A stretch of 64,000 nucleotides of DNA from an uncultured Planctomycetales bacterium (GTDB lineage Bacteria; Planctomycetota; Phycisphaerae; UBA1845; PWPN01). Shown here piece after piece: positions 22,514 to 51,835 of the stretch. A model generated the notes under the pieces. It searched no databases. It saw only the letters and a program-made list of their open reading frames with translations, and had not been told where the DNA came from. Position numbers and translations under genes: made by a program. Where the stretch lies: NCBI GenBank assembly GCA_964401335.1, contig CAYNYK010000002.1:67630-131629 (forward strand), given 5' to 3'. How positions within the stretch are numbered: the first letter of the stretch is position 1; every line of letters starts with the position of its first letter.

Positions 22514-24235
22514 ATGGCGGTAATTCAGATTCTTAACGAACAGGGGGCAAAGGTCGTTACCCTGCCGAACGGTCCGGCGATCATCGGCCGTTCCAGCGAC
22601 AATGATGTGGTCTTGGACGACAAGCTTGCCAGCCGAAAACATTGTTCGCTCGAGCCGGTCAACGGCGGGTTCATCCTTCGCGACCTCGGTTCGCGAAACG
22701 GCACGGGTATCCAGGGCAAACCCGTCAAGGAAGCCCGGCTCAAATACGGCGAGACGTTCACCATCGGTAAAACCGTCCTCCGCGTTTTTGAACACTCCGC
22801 CCCGAATATCGAGATTCTCGACTCCGCCGAAACGATCGTCGAGGAAATGGGCGACGACGAAGAGGCCGAGGCCCTCGAAGCCCTGGTGGCCGAGGCCGAG
22901 GAGGAAGAGGAACCCCTCGTTGAACAGGTCAATGTTTCCCAGGATGAAATCCTGGCCAAGGCCCGGCGCGATTTGAACAGCCTGCGTTCGGCCGGCGAAG
23001 ATCCCGGTTTCGGCCTGGAGCAGGTCGCGCTTTTCGATCACCAGGGTAAACCGGTACATACCAGCGACAAGGACGACAGTTCCTCCGAGGCCGTCCGCAC
23101 GCTGCGCCTGCTCTACTACGGAGCCTTCCGCACCCGGGCCACCGACCTGCATTTCGACCCAGTCGAGGAAGGCTGCCAGGTCCGGTTTCGGGTGGACGGT
23201 AAAATGATCTCCGTCGTCCTGCTGCCCGAACAGCTCGGCCGGGCCCTGCTCGGCGTGGTCAAGATTCTGTCGGAATTGGACATCGCCGGACGGCAGGGTA
23301 TCCAGGACGGCAGCTTCGTGGTCAGTTGCAACCGCCGCGTCGACAACCGCGTGTCCCTCACGCCTTCCATGCACGGGGAGAAACTGGTCATCCGCGTTCT
23401 GGACTCGGCCACCCTCCCCACCCGGCTGGACAAACTCGGCATGCCCCGCAACATGCTCAAATCCATCACCTCCCTATGCAAAATGGACGCGGGGATGATC
23501 ATCGTCAGCGGGCCGACCGGCAGCGGAAAAACCACTACGCTCTATACCGCCCTGCGAACCATCGACTCGCGTTCGCGTAATGTGGTCACCATCGAGGATC
23601 CCATCGAGTACCATCTGGCCGGCATTACGCAAATCCAGGTCAACGCCAAAAAAGGCCTCGATTTCGCCCCTATCCTAAAATCTGTTTTGCGACAAGACCC
23701 CGATGTGATTCTAGTCGGCGAGATGCGCGACCGCGAAACCGCCCAGACCGCCCTGCAGGCGGCCATGACCGGCCACCTGGTCTTTTCCACCCTCCACGCC
23801 CGCGACACCATCGGCTCAATCTATCGTCTCCTGGACCTCGGCGTTGAAAACTACATGATCGCCAACGCCGTCTCCATGTGCCTTGCCCAGCGGCTGATCC
23901 GCCTGCTCTGCGGTGAATGTAAAAAGGCCTACAAGCCCAAGCCCAGCCAGATCGCCCGCATGCGCGTCGACGCCCGCACCCTGCCGACGCTCTACGCCCC
24001 CACCGGTTGCCAGCGCTGCATGGGCGTCGGCTTCTGGGGTCGGGCGGCCATTTTCGAACTGTTGAGTTTCAACGACAAACTTCGCGACGCCCTCATCACC
24101 ACCACCACGATCAAGGACATCCGCGACGCCGCCGGCGAGTGGTCGTTTCAGACCCTGCTCGAGAGCGGCTATCAGAAAGTCCTCGAAGGCCTCACCAGTC
24201 TCGAGGAAGTCGAACGCGTCGCCACCCGTGAATAA
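22514..24235 (+). CDS. FHA-domain-fused GspE/PilB-family secretion ATPase
   Basis: N-terminal FHA (IIGRSSDNDVVLDDKLASRKHCSLE...LRDLGSRNGT) and an acidic linker. Walker A GPTGSGKTTT and Walker B ILVGEMRD. Tetracysteine CGEC...CQRC. Confidence 0.9.
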   Translation: MAVIQILNEQGAKVVTLPNGPAIIGRSSDNDVVLDDKLASRKHCSLEPVNGGFILRDLGSRNGTGIQGKPVKEARLKYGETFTIGKTVLRVFEHSAPNIEILDSAETIVEEMGDDEEAEALEALVAEAEEEEEPLVEQVNVSQDEILAKARRDLNSLRSAGEDPGFGLEQVALFDHQGKPVHTSDKDDSSSEAVRTLRLLYYGAFRTRATDLHFDPVEEGCQVRFRVDGKMISVVLLPEQLGRALLGVVKILSELDIAGRQGIQDGSFVVSCNRRVDNRVSLTPSMHGEKLVIRVLDSATLPTRLDKLGMPRNMLKSITSLCKMDAGMIIVSGPTGSGKTTTLYTALRTIDSRSRNVVTIEDPIEYHLAGITQIQVNAKKGLDFAPILKSVLRQDPDVILVGEMRDRETAQTALQAAMTGHLVFSTLHARDTIGSIYRLLDLGVENYMIANAVSMCLAQRLIRLLCGECKKAYKPKPSQIARMRVDARTLPTLYAPTGCQRCMGVGFWGRAAIFELLSFNDKLRDALITTTTIKDIRDAAGEWSFQTLLESGYQKVLEGLTSLEEVERVATRE

Positions 24236-24617
24236 CGCAAACGCGACCCCCGCGACTTTTGCGTCTTACCGTCCGGCTCGTCCAAGGGAGACTTTGGCGT
24301 ATAAAGCACGCATCCTGGCCGGCAAGCTTAAGCGGATGTTAGGGCGGTCTACGGTGGTGGTGGTCAGCGGCGCCCCGCAGGTTGGCAAGAGCACGCTGTT
24401 GAAGTACGAATTGCCGGGTTGGGATACCGTGGTATTTGATCCCGCATTGGATATGGGTAATGCGCGACAGGATCCTGACCTGTTCCTGGACAACCACCCA
24501 GCTTCGTTGATTCTCGATGAAATCCGATACGCTCCGGAATTGGTGACGGCCCTCAAACGACGCGTTTTATCTATTGCGACAGTGAAGATACTGCCAGGTT
24601 CGCAACTATTACGATAG
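24228..24617 (+). pseudogene. Truncated AAA-ATPase (DUF4143-type) remnant
   Basis: 129 aa with P-loop SGAPQVGKSTLL and LILDEIRYAPEL, ending abruptly at GSQLLR. Family members as I recall them are about 400 aa. GTG start overlaps the upstream stop. Confidence 0.55.
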
Positions 24618-24760
24618 GGATTCTGATAGGGTACGCAGGCGGGATGTGTAGGTCGCTAAAAGCATTCGAATGGGTTCAAGAACCGGCGGAAAATAGCCCG
24701 CCCTACGATTTGCTGATGAACACCCCCCTTGATTGCGGGGTTCAGGGATGATAAACCCCC

Positions 24761-26404
24761 TTGGCCGGTTTTGACAGTCTCGGCCGGTTCGGTTCCCATA
24801 GTCTATGTTTATTGGGAGGAACCGCGATTCACCTGAAAAGCCTTTTGCGTCGGAGTCGGAGTTTTCGCGGCGGGTTGTATCTGCCCGTCCGCCGCGATCT
24901 GGCCGCGCCGCCGGGGATCCGCGATTTCCCGAATCCGCCGATGCTGTGCGTTCCCATGATCCAGCACGACGGGCCGGCCGCCCGGATCGTCGTGCAGGTC
25001 GGCCAGCGGGTCCAGGCGGACCAGCTCATCGGCCGTGGCGAAAAACCCGACAGCCTCGACGTGCATGCCCCGCTGGCCGGCAAAGTCGTCGCCCTCGAAC
25101 GCATCGACACCGCCCGGCACAACGACGTGCCGGCCGTCCGCATCGAAACCGACCCGTCCGCTGCTCCGGCTTGCGATTCTACTCCGGCCTTGGAACGTTC
25201 CACCGGCGAGACGCCGGTGCCACACCTGTTCGGCGAGACACCGGTGCCACACCCATTCGGCGAGACGCCGGCGCCACACCCATTCGGCGAGACGCCGGCG
25301 CCACATTCATTCGGCGAGACGCCGGCGCCACATTCATTCGGCGAGACGCCGGCGCCACACAATAAAATACACACCGGCGGGACGCCGGTGCCACACAATA
25401 AAATACACACCGGCGAGACGCCGGCGCCACACCCGTTTGCGGACCCGCTCACTCCCGAGCAATTGGCCGAGCTGGCTGATCGGGCCGGCCTGATCGACTT
25501 CGGACTATCCGCCGCCCCACTCGGCCGGCAGCTTCGCCAAGCCGCCACCGGACAGCTTAACGATTTGATTATCAACGCGCTCGACGACGAGCCGGAGCCG
25601 GCCGATCGAAGCTGCCTGCTCGATGTCTCGCTGGAGACCGTCATTTCCGCCGCCGTCCGGCTGCGCAAGACGCTCAAGGCCCGGCGACTCTGGCTGGTGG
25701 TTGATCGCTACGACCCGCACCGCGTGCGCCGCTGCCGCGCGGCTGCCGCCGGAAAACCCGTACGCGTGCTCGCCCTGCCCAATAAATATCCGCAGGCTCA
25801 TCCCAACCTGTTGACCTATGCGGTCACCGGCCGGGAGCCCCCTTACGGCTCGCCGCCGATGCGTGTCAGCGTGTTCGTACTTGCGCTTGAAGCCCTGCTC
25901 GCTCTGGAAACCGCCCGCGTCCAGCGCCGCCCGATGACCCGGCGGCTTGTCACCGTCACCGGCGACGCCGTGCGGAAAAAAGGCCGTTACCTTATTCCCT
26001 TCGGCACACCCTTTGCCCACGTTCTGCAACACGTGGACCTGACCCGGCCGGTAACTCGCCTGATTGACGGGTCTTTGCTGACCGGCCGAGCCGTCGCCTC
26101 GGTTGATGCCGTGGTCACCCGGCAAACCACGAACTTGTTGGCCATCAGCCGCGACAATGATTACGTCGCCAATCCGGGCCCTTGCGTGCGCTGCGGACGG
26201 TGTCAGGACGATTGCCCGGTCGGCCTCGATCCGCAGGCCCTGCTGGATGTCTACGAACGCGGGCAGATTCAGGAGGCGTTGGCCCTGTGGCCGCACGCCT
26301 GCCTCGAATGCGGTCTGTGCAGCCACGTCTGTCCGGCGGAGCTCCCCTTGTCGGAAGCGACAGCCAGACTTAAACATCTTATACCTCTACAGGTGCAATG
26401 GTGA
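24761..26404 (+). CDS. RnfC/RsxC-like protein with a repeat insertion and a degenerate nucleotide-binding motif
   Basis: RnfC_N-like VPMIQHDGPAARIVVQVGQRV...HAPLAGKV. Central RnfC-like LIINALDDEPE...PNKYPQAHPNLL...RLVTVTGDAV. Two intact CxxCxxCxxxCP ferredoxin motifs. The start codon (TTG at 24761) is uncertain. Confidence 0.8.
   Translation: MAGFDSLGRFGSHSLCLLGGTAIHLKSLLRRSRSFRGGLYLPVRRDLAAPPGIRDFPNPPMLCVPMIQHDGPAARIVVQVGQRVQADQLIGRGEKPDSLDVHAPLAGKVVALERIDTARHNDVPAVRIETDPSAAPACDSTPALERSTGETPVPHLFGETPVPHPFGETPAPHPFGETPAPHSFGETPAPHSFGETPAPHNKIHTGGTPVPHNKIHTGETPAPHPFADPLTPEQLAELADRAGLIDFGLSAAPLGRQLRQAATGQLNDLIINALDDEPEPADRSCLLDVSLETVISAAVRLRKTLKARRLWLVVDRYDPHRVRRCRAAAAGKPVRVLALPNKYPQAHPNLLTYAVTGREPPYGSPPMRVSVFVLALEALLALETARVQRRPMTRRLVTVTGDAVRKKGRYLIPFGTPFAHVLQHVDLTRPVTRLIDGSLLTGRAVASVDAVVTRQTTNLLAISRDNDYVANPGPCVRCGRCQDDCPVGLDPQALLDVYERGQIQEALALWPHACLECGLCSHVCPAELPLSEATARLKHLIPLQVQW
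25205..25433. repeat. In-frame tandem repeat (five 27-nt units, then two 36-nt units and a partial) inside the rnfC-like gene
   Basis: The unit GGCGAGACGCCGG(C/T)GCCACAC(C/A)(C/T)ATTC encodes GETP(A/V)PH(P/S)F. Later units encode G(E/G)TP(A/V)PHNKIHT. Most units (GGC variant) contain the 8-bp palindrome CGCCGGCG. Confidence 0.9.
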
Positions 26405-27594
26405 GCAGATTTTCGTCAGGGCCGCGCGATCCGCAACCGGTGCTCCTGCCGGAAGCGGGTATGCTGCGCCTCGGCGCACCGCCGTTCAGCCACGGACCGG
26501 CCGGGGTCTCGTTTATCGCCGTGACCTTTCTGTTCGCCGCGTCGGCGGTGCTGCTGGCCGGCCTGATCCTGTTCGGCTGGCCCGTGATCCGAGTGACGGC
26601 CATCGCCGTCGCCGTCGCTTTGCTGACGGAGTCCGTCTTCGCCCTTCTGATCCGCCGCGGCCGTTCCTGGTCGGAAAGCCACGCTTTGCTGATCGGTCTG
26701 CTATTCGCTCTCACCCTTCCGCCGCTGGTCGATTGGCGGGTGGTGGTTTGGGGTTCCATTATCGCGGTCGCCGTCGGCCAGAATCTCGGCGGCGGACTGG
26801 GTAATTACACCTGGCATCCGGTCGCCCTGGCCCGGGTCGTGGTGCAAATGCTGTTTCACGATCAACTCACTGCGACTGAGCATCCGGTCCTGGCCGCCGG
26901 TCATCTGCTGTGGGGCAATCTGAACCACGGGCAACCGCTGCCCGCCTTGCAGACCTGGACCTCGGCCATCCCGCCCGCGGGCAAGGAAGCGTGGATCATC
27001 CCCGATACCTCTTTATTGCTCCATTATCCACTATCGGGCACAAGCGCGTCCTCGCCGGCAGCCGCCTTGGCTGAGTTGATCCGCGACCGGTTGCCACCCT
27101 GGCCCGAGGCCATCGCCGGGCTGGCCGGAGGCGCGATCGGGACGGCCTGCGTGCTGGCCGTGCTGCTCGCCGGATTGTTTCTGCTGTGGCGAGGCTTTGT
27201 CCGCTGGCCAATGGTACTGGCCGCCCTGACAGCCGCCGCTGCCATGATTTTTATCCTGCCGCTGCGCGTGCTGAGTGAAAACGGCGAGATGATCCGCTAT
27301 TGGTTACCTGGAGCGGCGGTCTGGCAAGGCCTGCCCGTTGGGCTGGTCTACCTCGCTTACCAGTTGACCGCTGGCGAATTTCTGCTGGTTCTTCTGTTGC
27401 TGGCCCCCGATCCAACCAGTTCGCCGCTCACCACCCGCGGGCACATCTGGTTCGGTCTGATCATCGGATTAACCACCATGCTGCTGACGATTCTTGCGGG
27501 GATTCCCGCCGCCGGTTACTGGGCCCTGCTGGCGGCCAATACCTTCGTCCCCCTCATCAATCGCCGCACCCGCCGGCGCGTGTTCGGGACATAA
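26398..27594 (+). CDS. RnfD/NqrB-family polytopic membrane protein (divergent)
   Basis: LLIGLLFALTLPP...AVGQNLGGGLGNYTWHPVALARV and LAGGAIGTACVLAVLLAGLFLLWRGFVRWP align by eye with the RnfD blocks (fGGlG.N.fNPA and GSiGEtS...W). Overlaps the rnfC-like stop by 7 nt. Confidence 0.75.
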   Translation: MVSRFSSGPRDPQPVLLPEAGMLRLGAPPFSHGPAGVSFIAVTFLFAASAVLLAGLILFGWPVIRVTAIAVAVALLTESVFALLIRRGRSWSESHALLIGLLFALTLPPLVDWRVVVWGSIIAVAVGQNLGGGLGNYTWHPVALARVVVQMLFHDQLTATEHPVLAAGHLLWGNLNHGQPLPALQTWTSAIPPAGKEAWIIPDTSLLLHYPLSGTSASSPAAALAELIRDRLPPWPEAIAGLAGGAIGTACVLAVLLAGLFLLWRGFVRWPMVLAALTAAAAMIFILPLRVLSENGEMIRYWLPGAAVWQGLPVGLVYLAYQLTAGEFLLVLLLLAPDPTSSPLTTRGHIWFGLIIGLTTMLLTILAGIPAAGYWALLAANTFVPLINRRTRRRVFGT

Positions 27595-27616
27595 GAACAG
27601 AAATGCAGACCATCGC

Positions 27617-27644
27617 TTGTCCCAAGTCAGCAAAATGCTATACT
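27617..27644 (+). promoter_or_regulatory. Sigma-70-like promoter candidate
   Basis: TTGTCC (27617-27622), 16-nt spacer, TATACT (27639-27644), in an AT-richer spacer upstream of the small ORF. Confidence 0.35.
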
Positions 27645-27696
27645 GAGTTGGTTGGGTGTTAGATCAAAAGGAAATTACGGACAACAGAAACAGAAT

Positions 27697-27897
27697 ATGA
27701 CCCCATCAGATATCACGATTCAAATCAAATCGTTACGGACCCAACTGGACGTATTGGCCGCCAAGCTTAGTGGTCCTGATCCAACTGGCGACCATACTCT
27801 GCACGACCTGCAAGGGATTCTCAAAGACCAAGCACACACCTCGATCAAGGAAATCGAGGAAGTGATCTATCGCGGCCCCACAGGAAATGAGTCATAA
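27697..27897 (+). CDS. Small hypothetical protein, antitoxin-like
   Basis: 66 aa counted from the ATG at 27697: MTPSDITIQIKSLRTQLDVLAAKL...LHDLQGILKDQAHTSIKEIEEVIY. This resembles short helical antitoxin-type proteins. No toxin gene is adjacent. Confidence 0.45.
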   Translation: MTPSDITIQIKSLRTQLDVLAAKLSGPDPTGDHTLHDLQGILKDQAHTSIKEIEEVIYRGPTGNES

Positions 27898-50692: not shown

Positions 50693-51835
50693 ATGAACTC
50701 AAAAGAACGGGCGCGGGCGGCCATTGCCCGCCAACCGGTGGATCAGGTTCCGCTCGGCTTCTATACCGTCGATCATGACACGATCGAGGCGGTCCTCGGG
50801 CGGCCGACCTTCGTGCGTAACAAGATCGCTCACCGCGTGGCCTTATGGGAAGGCCGCCGGGACGAACTCGCGGAAAGCCTGAAAAAGGACACCGTGGGTT
50901 TTTATCGCAAGATCGATTGCGCGGATATCATTCTGCCCAAAGAGGCCTGCTGGCTACCCCCGCGCGATTACGATCCCGACCCGCCGCGTAAAATCAACGA
51001 GAATTGCTGGGAAGACCGCCTCGGCCGGGTATGGCAGGCGGTTCCGGAAGTCAACGACATCACCTGCATTCATGATCCGAACATCGGCAAGAAAGTCTAC
51101 ACCCCGGCGGATTTCGAGGGACCGGTCGAAGACGAGCCTTTTGATCCATCCTGTTTCGAGGCGATGGATTACGTGATCGAGCAACTGGGACAGGATCGTT
51201 ATGTGGCCACTACGACGGGAGGGACGACGGCCCTGACGTTGATTGACGGGATGGAACACGGGTTGCTGATGTACGCGACACAGCCGGAAGTGATCCACGC
51301 GGCCAACCGCCGCTCGGTAATGGTACAGAATCGGCGCGACCCGGACTACATTCGGCCGGGGGCGGCCGGGGCCTTGATGGAAGAGGACATGGCCGGCTCG
51401 AACGGGCCATTGATCAGTCCGACGATGTTTCGGGAGTTGGGTTTCCCTTATCTGCGGGAGCGCATCGCCAACGTCAAAAAACACGTGGATCAGGTCATTT
51501 TTCACAACTGCGGCATGAATATTCCCCTGATGGACATGCTCATCGAGGCCGGGATCGACTGTTACCAGTCGCTGCAGACGACGGCCGGCATGGAAGTGGG
51601 CAAGCTCAAGGCCCTCTACGGTGACCGCCTGTGCTTCTGGGGCGGGGTGGCCTTGGAAGTTCTAATTAGAGGTACACCTGACGACGTGCGCAAGGAAGTA
51701 CGCCGGGCCATGGAGCGCGGCGCGCCCGGCGGCGGATTCATCCTCGGCCCCAGCCACTCCATCGCCAAGGGTACGCGCTACGACAATTTCATGGCCATGC
51801 TGGATGAATTCGTAGCATTGCGGGACAAGTTTTGA
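50693..51835 (+). CDS. Uroporphyrinogen-decarboxylase-family (URO-D/MtaA-like) protein
   Basis: 380 aa. The (beta/alpha)8 URO-D-like blocks include FHNCGMNIPLMDMLIEAGIDCYQSLQ and GGGFILGPSHSI. Confidence 0.85.
   Translation: MNSKERARAAIARQPVDQVPLGFYTVDHDTIEAVLGRPTFVRNKIAHRVALWEGRRDELAESLKKDTVGFYRKIDCADIILPKEACWLPPRDYDPDPPRKINENCWEDRLGRVWQAVPEVNDITCIHDPNIGKKVYTPADFEGPVEDEPFDPSCFEAMDYVIEQLGQDRYVATTTGGTTALTLIDGMEHGLLMYATQPEVIHAANRRSVMVQNRRDPDYIRPGAAGALMEEDMAGSNGPLISPTMFRELGFPYLRERIANVKKHVDQVIFHNCGMNIPLMDMLIEAGIDCYQSLQTTAGMEVGKLKALYGDRLCFWGGVALEVLIRGTPDDVRKEVRRAMERGAPGGGFILGPSHSIAKGTRYDNFMAMLDEFVALRDKF

Follow-up and report, generated by a model that had tools for sequence, protein, structure and literature searches.

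A stand-alone RnfC-like and RnfD-like gene pair, separate from Rnf and Nqr, in an order of Phycisphaerae: a possible membrane-anchored iron-sulphur module

Results

The stretch of DNA analysed here (64,000 nucleotides in all, referred to below as the window) comes from contig CAYNYK010000002.1 of an uncultured Planctomycetales bacterium of the class Phycisphaerae, and contains two overlapping genes whose products resemble the RnfC and RnfD subunits of the Rnf electron transport complex. All features given below by window coordinates from 22514 to 27897 lie on the plus strand. An earlier note, made from the letters of the window, held that only rnfC-like and rnfD-like genes are present, overlapping by 7 nucleotides (nt), that no rnfG, rnfE, rnfA or rnfB follows, and that the two look like a repurposed two-subunit membrane module outside the canonical Rnf complex. 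The gene limits are indeed as it described: the RnfC-like gene occupies 24761-26404 (547 amino acids, aa, counted from the outermost TTG) and the RnfD-like gene 26398-27594 (398 aa), the latter overlapping the RnfC-like stop by 7 nt. Pfam searches of the next open reading frames (ORFs) found no Rnf-like gene downstream of the pair, where a small ORF followed by an aldo/keto reductase gene lies instead. The idea of a repurposed module is supported by the alignments, by the separate canonical C and D subunits of the same genome and by the census of genomes reported below. Where the RnfC-like gene actually begins is uncertain, and comparison of sequences within the genus places its start, as likely as can be judged, at the TTG at 24845 or nearby: in the same-genus genome G001 (genomes, contigs, loci, families and genera are cited by our own handles) the first start codon corresponds to this TTG, giving a protein of 519 aa, and in a second one, G002, the frame is likewise open upstream of that position.

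In Pfam searches the RnfC-like protein consists of RnfC_N (aa 34-131), Complex1_51K (aa 241-381) and a 4Fe-4S dicluster region (aa 475-527), in this order. The first is a barrel-sandwich domain (24860-25153; PF13375, E = 3e-19), made of beta strands and modelled with a high predicted local distance difference test (pLDDT) score. The second is NuoF-like (25481-25903; PF01512, E = 2.8e-14) with degenerate cofactor motifs, and the third is ferredoxin-like (26183-26335, with Fer4 matches), holding two CxxCxxCxxxCP motifs (26183-26218 and 26300-26335). The degeneracy of the second domain had been proposed from pairings made by eye, and all of them were recovered by phmmer against Azotobacter vinelandii RnfC (8ahx_C), where DFGLSAAPL (aa 246-254; 25496-25522) pairs with GLGGAIFPA, NALDDEPE (aa 272-279; 25574-25597) with NGSECEPY, and YPQAH (aa 343-347; 25787-25801) with YPMGS. 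Alignment to the canonical RnfC encoded in this genome leads to the same three pairings, and the motifs were also aligned to 9eri_C. The glycine-rich loop that binds flavin mononucleotide (FMN) and reduced nicotinamide adenine dinucleotide (NADH) is conserved in none of 17 members of the RnfC-like family; distant members retain a remnant of the form N(G/A)ME(S/T)EP(Y/C)L, and NKYPQ is common to all. The contrast with canonical proteins is a clean one, since 20 canonical planctomycete RnfC proteins keep all three motifs intact, as GMGGATFPTH, ECEPYLT and YPQGAEKQL. Both cluster motifs of the RnfC-like protein are intact too (C475/478/481/485-P486 and C514/517/520/524-P525), as previously noticed, and an alignment of 14 family members, reaching down to about 30% identity, has all eight cluster cysteines and both prolines invariant.

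The AlphaFold2 (AF2) model of the RnfC-like protein has a pLDDT above 90 in its folded parts, with residues 1-37 and 138-226 disordered, and its best Foldseek matches are RnfC structures (8rbq_C, 9eri_C and 7zc6_C, with target-normalised template modelling scores, TMt, of 0.80-0.86), then NqrA, then NuoF, which establishes its fold. Its scores nevertheless fall below the cut-offs of the NCBI models, with 224.6 bits against 245.95 for TIGR01945 (rnfC), 206 against 345 for the RsxC model and 25 against 321 for nqrA. The ratio of nonsynonymous to synonymous substitution rates (dN/dS) is 0.21 relative to G001, and that of the RnfD-like gene is 0.14-0.17 within the genus, so both genes are under purifying selection.

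The RnfD-like protein has NQR2_RnfD_RnfE (PF03116, 173 bits) as its sole Pfam domain and also scores below the NCBI cut-offs (117.3 bits against 207.05 for TIGR01946, rnfD, and 60.6 against 349.9 for the nqrB model). Its AF2 model (pLDDT 86.7, predicted template modelling score 0.85) has the ten-helix RnfD fold, and Foldseek returns RnfD structures as best matches (8ahx_D, 9eri_D and 7zc6_D; TMt 0.75-0.82), then NqrB and, far behind it, urea and ammonium transporters (E = 0.04 and above; TM 0.35-0.47).

Canonical RnfD carries an FMN on a periplasmic threonine (T156 in Acetobacterium woodii, T153 in Clostridium tetanomorphum; PMC11889175, PMC9588780). The RnfD-like protein had been suspected of lacking the attachment motif, and a proper alignment agrees. 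We aligned, profile against profile (HHalign), 21 members of the RnfD-like family with 13 canonical planctomycete RnfD proteins, and found the canonical DAVTQATPL facing a family motif xAWxxxRPxxxL, with 20 and 14 residues inserted around it. The flavinylation loop is thus replaced by an enlarged periplasmic loop (aa 157-231; 26866-27090, as placed by HHalign, phmmer giving an alternative). At the position of the acceptor threonine HHalign puts Asp203 (27004-27006), where the family consensus is Arg and members have Arg, Pro, Asp or Ser, while phmmer, in a weak alignment (17 bits, i-Evalue 0.018), places A. woodii T156 on Ser219, that is on the pair Ser218/219 (27049-27054), a position occupied in the family by S, D, Q or G and not kept among four congeners. 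Under neither of the two alignments, then, does the family have a conserved flavin-acceptor threonine or serine. A second insertion specific to the family (aa 287-313; 27256-27336) appears as an HHalign gap relative to canonical RnfD, is predicted to form a beta hairpin and has P288, P304 and P313 conserved; altogether the RnfD-like proteins have about 55 extra conserved periplasmic residues. Strands are predicted in the insertions by the AF2 model at residues 161-165, 178-180, 198-202, 289-292 and 298-301, on the face that in canonical RnfD carries the FMN and contacts RnfG.

The second flavin of canonical RnfD, a riboflavin near the cytoplasm, is held by an Asn and an Asp (N123/D249 or N124/D248; PMC11889175, PMC9588780). 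His140 of a W-H-P motif (26815-26817) takes the place of the A. woodii ligand Asn123 in a phmmer alignment to 9eri_D; W139 and P141 are invariant, and position 140 is H, or Q in two of the 21 family members. Asp338 (27409-27411) is at the position of the other ligand, Asp249 in A. woodii and Asp248 in C. tetanomorphum, which is Asp or Glu in all 21. Between the two, GAIGTAC (aa 245-251; 27130-27150) replaces the canonical GxxGE(S/T)S. The earlier note had pointed this replacement out, and the residues are as it gave them; the exchange of Glu for Thr, however, is peculiar to the genus, as Glu is kept (GxIGE) in 16 of the 21 family members. The RnfD-like protein of locus L042 has a Gly/Pro-rich stretch in place of the GxIGE region. 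With these comparisons the inventory of cofactor sites is established for both proteins, and neither the glycine-rich nor the FMN-attachment motif is conserved.

The genome (G000, 98% complete) also has a complete rnfCDGEAB operon at C26:35519-40869, with its own canonical rnfC and rnfD, and a complete nqrABCDEF operon on contig C7, with its own nqrA and nqrB. The case that the earlier note had set against its own reading, an rnf operon elsewhere lacking C and D, does not occur in the genome-wide search. The ORF after the nqr operon on C7 may encode ApbE, as an unconfirmed candidate. A further RnfC_N match (C68:8759-10084, minus strand; L010:1498-2823) turned out to be PduS-like and unrelated to the pair: it adjoins a microcompartment shell gene and is therefore probably part of a planctomycete-type microcompartment locus, and its protein has GAGGGGFPTH, AECEPL and YPAGDE intact, with the RnfC_N-like barrel at the C-terminus.

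The distribution of the pair, for which the earlier note had proposed a survey, was followed in a sample of 151 genomes of this order, with PF02508 as marker of RnfA, RnfE, NqrD and NqrE. The RnfD-like protein is found in 75 of them, mostly with more than 330 bits over its full length, in at least nine taxonomic families and with intact frames. PF02508 is found in 30 genomes, 13 of which have the RnfD-like protein as well, leaving 62 with the RnfD-like protein and no marker; its absence was confirmed in five genomes that are 95-100% complete. Taken by family, the RnfD-like protein and the marker occur in 32/32 and 1/32 genomes of f2, in 7/7 and 0/7 of f3, and in 0/32 and 10/32 of f6, respectively, so that independence of the pair from Rnf and Nqr is established. 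The RnfC-like gene adjoins the RnfD-like gene in 16 of the 20 loci read, with differing flanks. ApbE was found in four of the five pair-bearing genomes tested and not in the fifth, which is 95% complete; a dependence of the pair on ApbE was rejected. A link to aerobic respiration was also considered and rejected: the heme-copper oxidase (PF00115) is present in 124 of the 151 genomes, including families without the pair, is missing from the present, pair-bearing genus, and is uncorrelated with the pair.

A wider spread in Planctomycetota was looked for in a sample of 300 genomes of the phylum, where full-length matches reached 243 bits and the best 20 all belong to canonical rnfCDGEAB operons with intact motifs; the genomes sampled therefore yielded no member of the flavin-less family from outside its own order. 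A protein search for related loci returned only two congeners, an uncultured 'Planctomycetales' metagenome-assembled genome (MAG) and a Phycisphaerales MAG. Literature searches on RnfC/RnfD in Phycisphaerae and Planctomycetes brought up canonical operons only and no description of a stand-alone pair.

The pair is preceded by the gene of a type II/IV secretion ATPase of the T2SSE type (22514-24235; T2SSE, 373 bits) with a fused N-terminal FHA domain, and by a 129-aa AAA_14 ATPase ORF (24228-24617) directly upstream of the pair, which covers the N-terminal part of the family only (profile positions 3-90 of 129) and is probably a truncated gene fragment. The small ORF downstream (27617-27897) encodes 81 aa, or 66 aa from its ATG, has no Pfam match and is preceded by a promoter-like site, TTGTCC-16-TATACT. 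No counterpart of it was found in the two congener loci, which have little or no sequence past the RnfD-like gene. As partners of the pair, the FHA-T2SSE ATPase, the AAA_14 fragment, the small ORF and the aldo/keto reductase were all rejected, having no counterparts beside the pair in relatives.

The only recurrent neighbours in the 20 loci are ScpB (five loci) and proteins like uroporphyrinogen decarboxylase (URO-D; four loci). The scpB genes (L036:8966-9742, L038:8496-9050, L043:5273-6343, L037:5523-6236 and L042:4617-5390) follow the RnfD-like gene, immediately in three loci and at a distance of 1.3-2.2 kb in two, and the pair is therefore often found among housekeeping genes. The URO-D-like genes (L024:6682-7419, L030:9934-11148, L031:10602-11133 and L038:4383-5456) vary in orientation, and their adjacency to the pair is weak because the family is expanded in this genome, with 33 matches, one of them in the window at about 51077-51805. 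In G028 the ORF upstream of the RnfD-like gene (L037:8660-9280, minus strand) overlaps its start by the same 7 nt; its product of 206 aa has a signal peptide, a C-terminal hydrophobic anchor followed by RRR, and no Pfam match.

The RnfC-like gene of this genome carries an in-frame tandem repeat in its linker (aa about 148-224; 25204-25432), which Tandem Repeats Finder resolves into 27 nt x 5.8 followed by 36 nt x 2.6. It amounts to an insertion of 81 residues in FGETPAPHP-type units, falls within the region that the model leaves disordered (aa 138-226), and is specific to this genome: in G001 and G002, which lack it, aa 144 is followed at once by about aa 226. The unit repeated here, a hairpin motif some 25 nt long (CACCGGCG-AGA-CGCCGGTG followed by CCACAC), has 89 matches at 66 places in the genome (up to 2 mismatches; e.g., C91:17897-18045, C34:814-919 and C83:13692-13762), and its largest array, of eight copies, is the one in frame inside the RnfC-like gene. 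Often the motif is part of a longer element that has inverted ends (AGTGCATCCTAAAACC ... GGTTTTAGGATGCACT) and includes a second hairpin, and short locus-specific tandem arrays often come after it. Read on the minus strand, the 36-nt units resemble intrinsic terminators.

Discussion

We consider it somewhat better than an even chance that the pair is an autonomous, non-pumping, membrane-anchored iron-sulphur (Fe-S) module, a derivative of the RnfC-RnfD arm that arose in one order of Phycisphaerae and has been kept there by selection independently of Rnf and Nqr. In canonical Rnf the clusters of RnfC are wired to the riboflavin of RnfD (PMC12174285, PMC9588780), and the parts that survive in the pair would correspond to the stretch of Rnf that connects both [4Fe-4S] clusters with the pocket for riboflavin, which makes a membrane-anchored one-electron module the most economical interpretation. 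Ion translocation has been placed in RnfA/E (PMC11889175), and with neither RnfA/E nor RnfG the pair could not pump ions in the manner of Rnf.

As for how such a module might work, the Fe-S RnfC-like subunit would dock on the cytoplasmic face of the RnfD-like subunit, as RnfC does on RnfD. Single electrons would enter from a soluble carrier such as ferredoxin, NADH not being usable, and both clusters would relay them to a flavin, probably riboflavin-like, that is bound non-covalently in the pocket which the RnfD-like protein has on the cytoplasmic side. From there the electrons could go on to a membrane or periplasmic acceptor, either quinone, as in NQR, where electrons go from riboflavin to quinone and not to NAD+ (PMC12174285), or a partner protein to which the new periplasmic cap would bind. 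The pair would in this case be a minimal membrane redox enzyme, in which an Fe-S protein without flavin/NADH site sits on an RnfD-type subunit with a non-covalent flavin and a periplasmic beta cap, carries electrons from a ferredoxin-type donor to quinone or a periplasmic acceptor without pumping, and forms the core pair of several Phycisphaerae families (32/32 genomes in one). We put forward this fuller description only tentatively, at rather less than even confidence.

Several observations weigh against the interpretation as an autonomous redox module. The putative riboflavin binding is read from two residues of the RnfD-like sequence, one of them altered (Asn to His). The RnfD-like variants of L042 (genome G007), G401 and G010 (genera g5 and g8) lack the greater part of the first periplasmic insertion (about aa 160-195). 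In one genome (G028, 93% complete) the RnfD-like gene is present and no RnfC-like gene was found; in another (G012) the two are unlinked, and in a third (G032) they are on different short contigs. All-against-all BLAST of the flanking ORFs of the 20 loci revealed no conserved third gene, and no electron donor or acceptor partner was found in these neighbourhoods. The presence of the pair tracks neither the heme-copper oxidase nor Rnf/Nqr, and it is left for this reason without a physiological anchor. Finally, the 81-residue repeat insertion could impair the RnfC-like protein of this genome, although it falls in a disordered linker.

Some of these observations lend weight to a non-redox role, in which the RnfD-like protein, as one of the ammonium/urea-transporter fold class, would be a channel, a transporter or a membrane scaffold. 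The Fe-S subunit would then sense oxygen or redox state, or else be a structural protein like the cofactor-less NqrA in NQR. The lack of a redox partner in the neighbourhood and the genome with an RnfD-like but no RnfC-like gene would both fit it, as would the urea and ammonium transporters that come next after RnfD and NqrB in the structural search, the more so as the evolutionary relation has been stated in a review (PMC12174285), and NqrA itself shows that an RnfC homologue can persist without catalysis. Yet the transporter matches are weak, the riboflavin-site Asp is kept, and the eight cysteines with their flanking prolines are invariant down to about 30% identity, whereas they are lost in NqrA. 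We therefore regard a non-redox role as unlikely; the invariant cluster cysteines and the retained Asp of the riboflavin site, as far as sequences can tell, favour a redox module over a scaffold.

Another possibility is that ApbE still flavinylates the RnfD-like protein of this genus, at Ser218/219 within T215-S-A-S-S-P, which would make this protein a covalent flavoprotein of the canonical type. The T-S-A-S of this segment fits the pattern [ST]-[GS]-A-[ST], the phmmer alignment that places A. woodii T156 on S219 leaves a spacing of 30-32 residues to the GxxGE position, as in canonical RnfD, and the ORF after the nqr operon is an unconfirmed candidate for ApbE. Several points make this quite improbable: the phmmer alignment is weak, and HHalign locates the motif at Asp203, 15 residues further upstream; the motif is without its Asp at position -6; even congeners fail to keep the motif, reading GTGSTSP, VSPSSSS and SAGESSQ in its place; and one pair-bearing genome has no ApbE.

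Alternatively, the pair may provide alternative C and D subunits that swap into a canonical RnfGEAB or NqrCDEF core under some condition, given that the pair and such a core co-occur in this genome and in 12 others of the order sample. This seems highly improbable to us, since 62 of the 75 genomes with the RnfD-like protein have no RnfA/E/NqrD/E homologue, the region of RnfD that docks RnfG and holds FMN is rebuilt in the RnfD-like protein, and the canonical operons hold their own C/D or A/B subunits. That the two genes are decaying, functionless remnants of a duplicated rnf operon is hardly credible in spite of their lost cofactor motifs, their scores under the family cut-offs and the repeat insertion in this genome, considering the intact frames in 75 genomes of at least nine families, the dN/dS of 0.14-0.21, the invariant cluster cysteines, and the in-frame position of the insertion in a linker.

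Public records label the RnfD-like proteins 'RnfABCDGE type electron transport complex subunit D', a name that can lead genome-based reconstructions of metabolism in Phycisphaerae to count Rnf as present when it is not. In the order sampled, 62 of the 75 genomes with an RnfD-like protein have no Rnf or Nqr core. Should the pair indeed be a ferredoxin-linked, non-pumping oxidoreductase, it would represent a new entry point to the electron transport chain in widespread polysaccharide-degrading bacteria. The pair may be seen as a natural dissection of the Rnf/NQR machine that leaves just the part running from the Fe-S clusters to the pocket for riboflavin. In cofactor content it stands between RnfC (FMN and clusters) and NqrA (nothing), and it bears on the evolution of NQR from Rnf and on the role of the RnfD subunit by itself.

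Comparison with known systems

Among the closest known systems is Rnf itself (RnfABCDGE or RsxABCDGE, the ferredoxin:NAD+ oxidoreductase; structures 8AHX, 9ERI and 7ZC6), with which the pair shares the gene order, C then D, the architecture of RnfC (RnfC_N, a NuoF-like domain and two [4Fe-4S] clusters), and the ten-helix fold, the GGxGxN/WxP motif and the riboflavin-site Asp of RnfD. The RnfC-like protein differs by having no FMN/NADH glycine loop, and the RnfD-like protein by having no flavinylated Thr, about 55 extra periplasmic residues and a His for the Asn ligand; both subunits are below the NCBIfam cut-offs, no RnfG, E, A or B accompanies them, and 62 of the genomes that bear them lack RnfA/E.

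NqrA is a homologue of RnfC without NADH/FMN site that is still seated on an RnfD homologue (PMC12174285), and in this respect it offers a precedent for the RnfC-like subunit. Unlike the latter, which retains both cluster motifs, NqrA has no Fe-S clusters, and NqrB keeps the covalent FMN Thr and the N-terminal helices of the quinone site, neither of which is seen in the RnfD-like protein. NqrA and NqrB, moreover, work only with NqrCDEF.

Finally, two-subunit Nqr/Rnf-like complexes have been reported (Meheust et al. 2021; Huang et al. 2024, PMC10979944) in which an RnfD-like protein is fused to a cytosolic NAD-binding domain (PF00175) and has a flavinylated RnfG/NqrC-like partner (PMC10979944). 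As in our pair, the subunit is RnfD/NqrB-like, its flavinylation Thr is not conserved, and the non-covalent flavin site is thought to remain. The pair differs from them: nothing is fused to its RnfD-like protein, none of the neighbours has an FMN_bind domain, the pair does not depend on ApbE, and the RnfD-like protein is partnered instead by an Fe-S protein of the RnfC type. None of these systems, whether Rnf, NqrA/NqrB or the two-subunit complexes, has the combination found in this pair.

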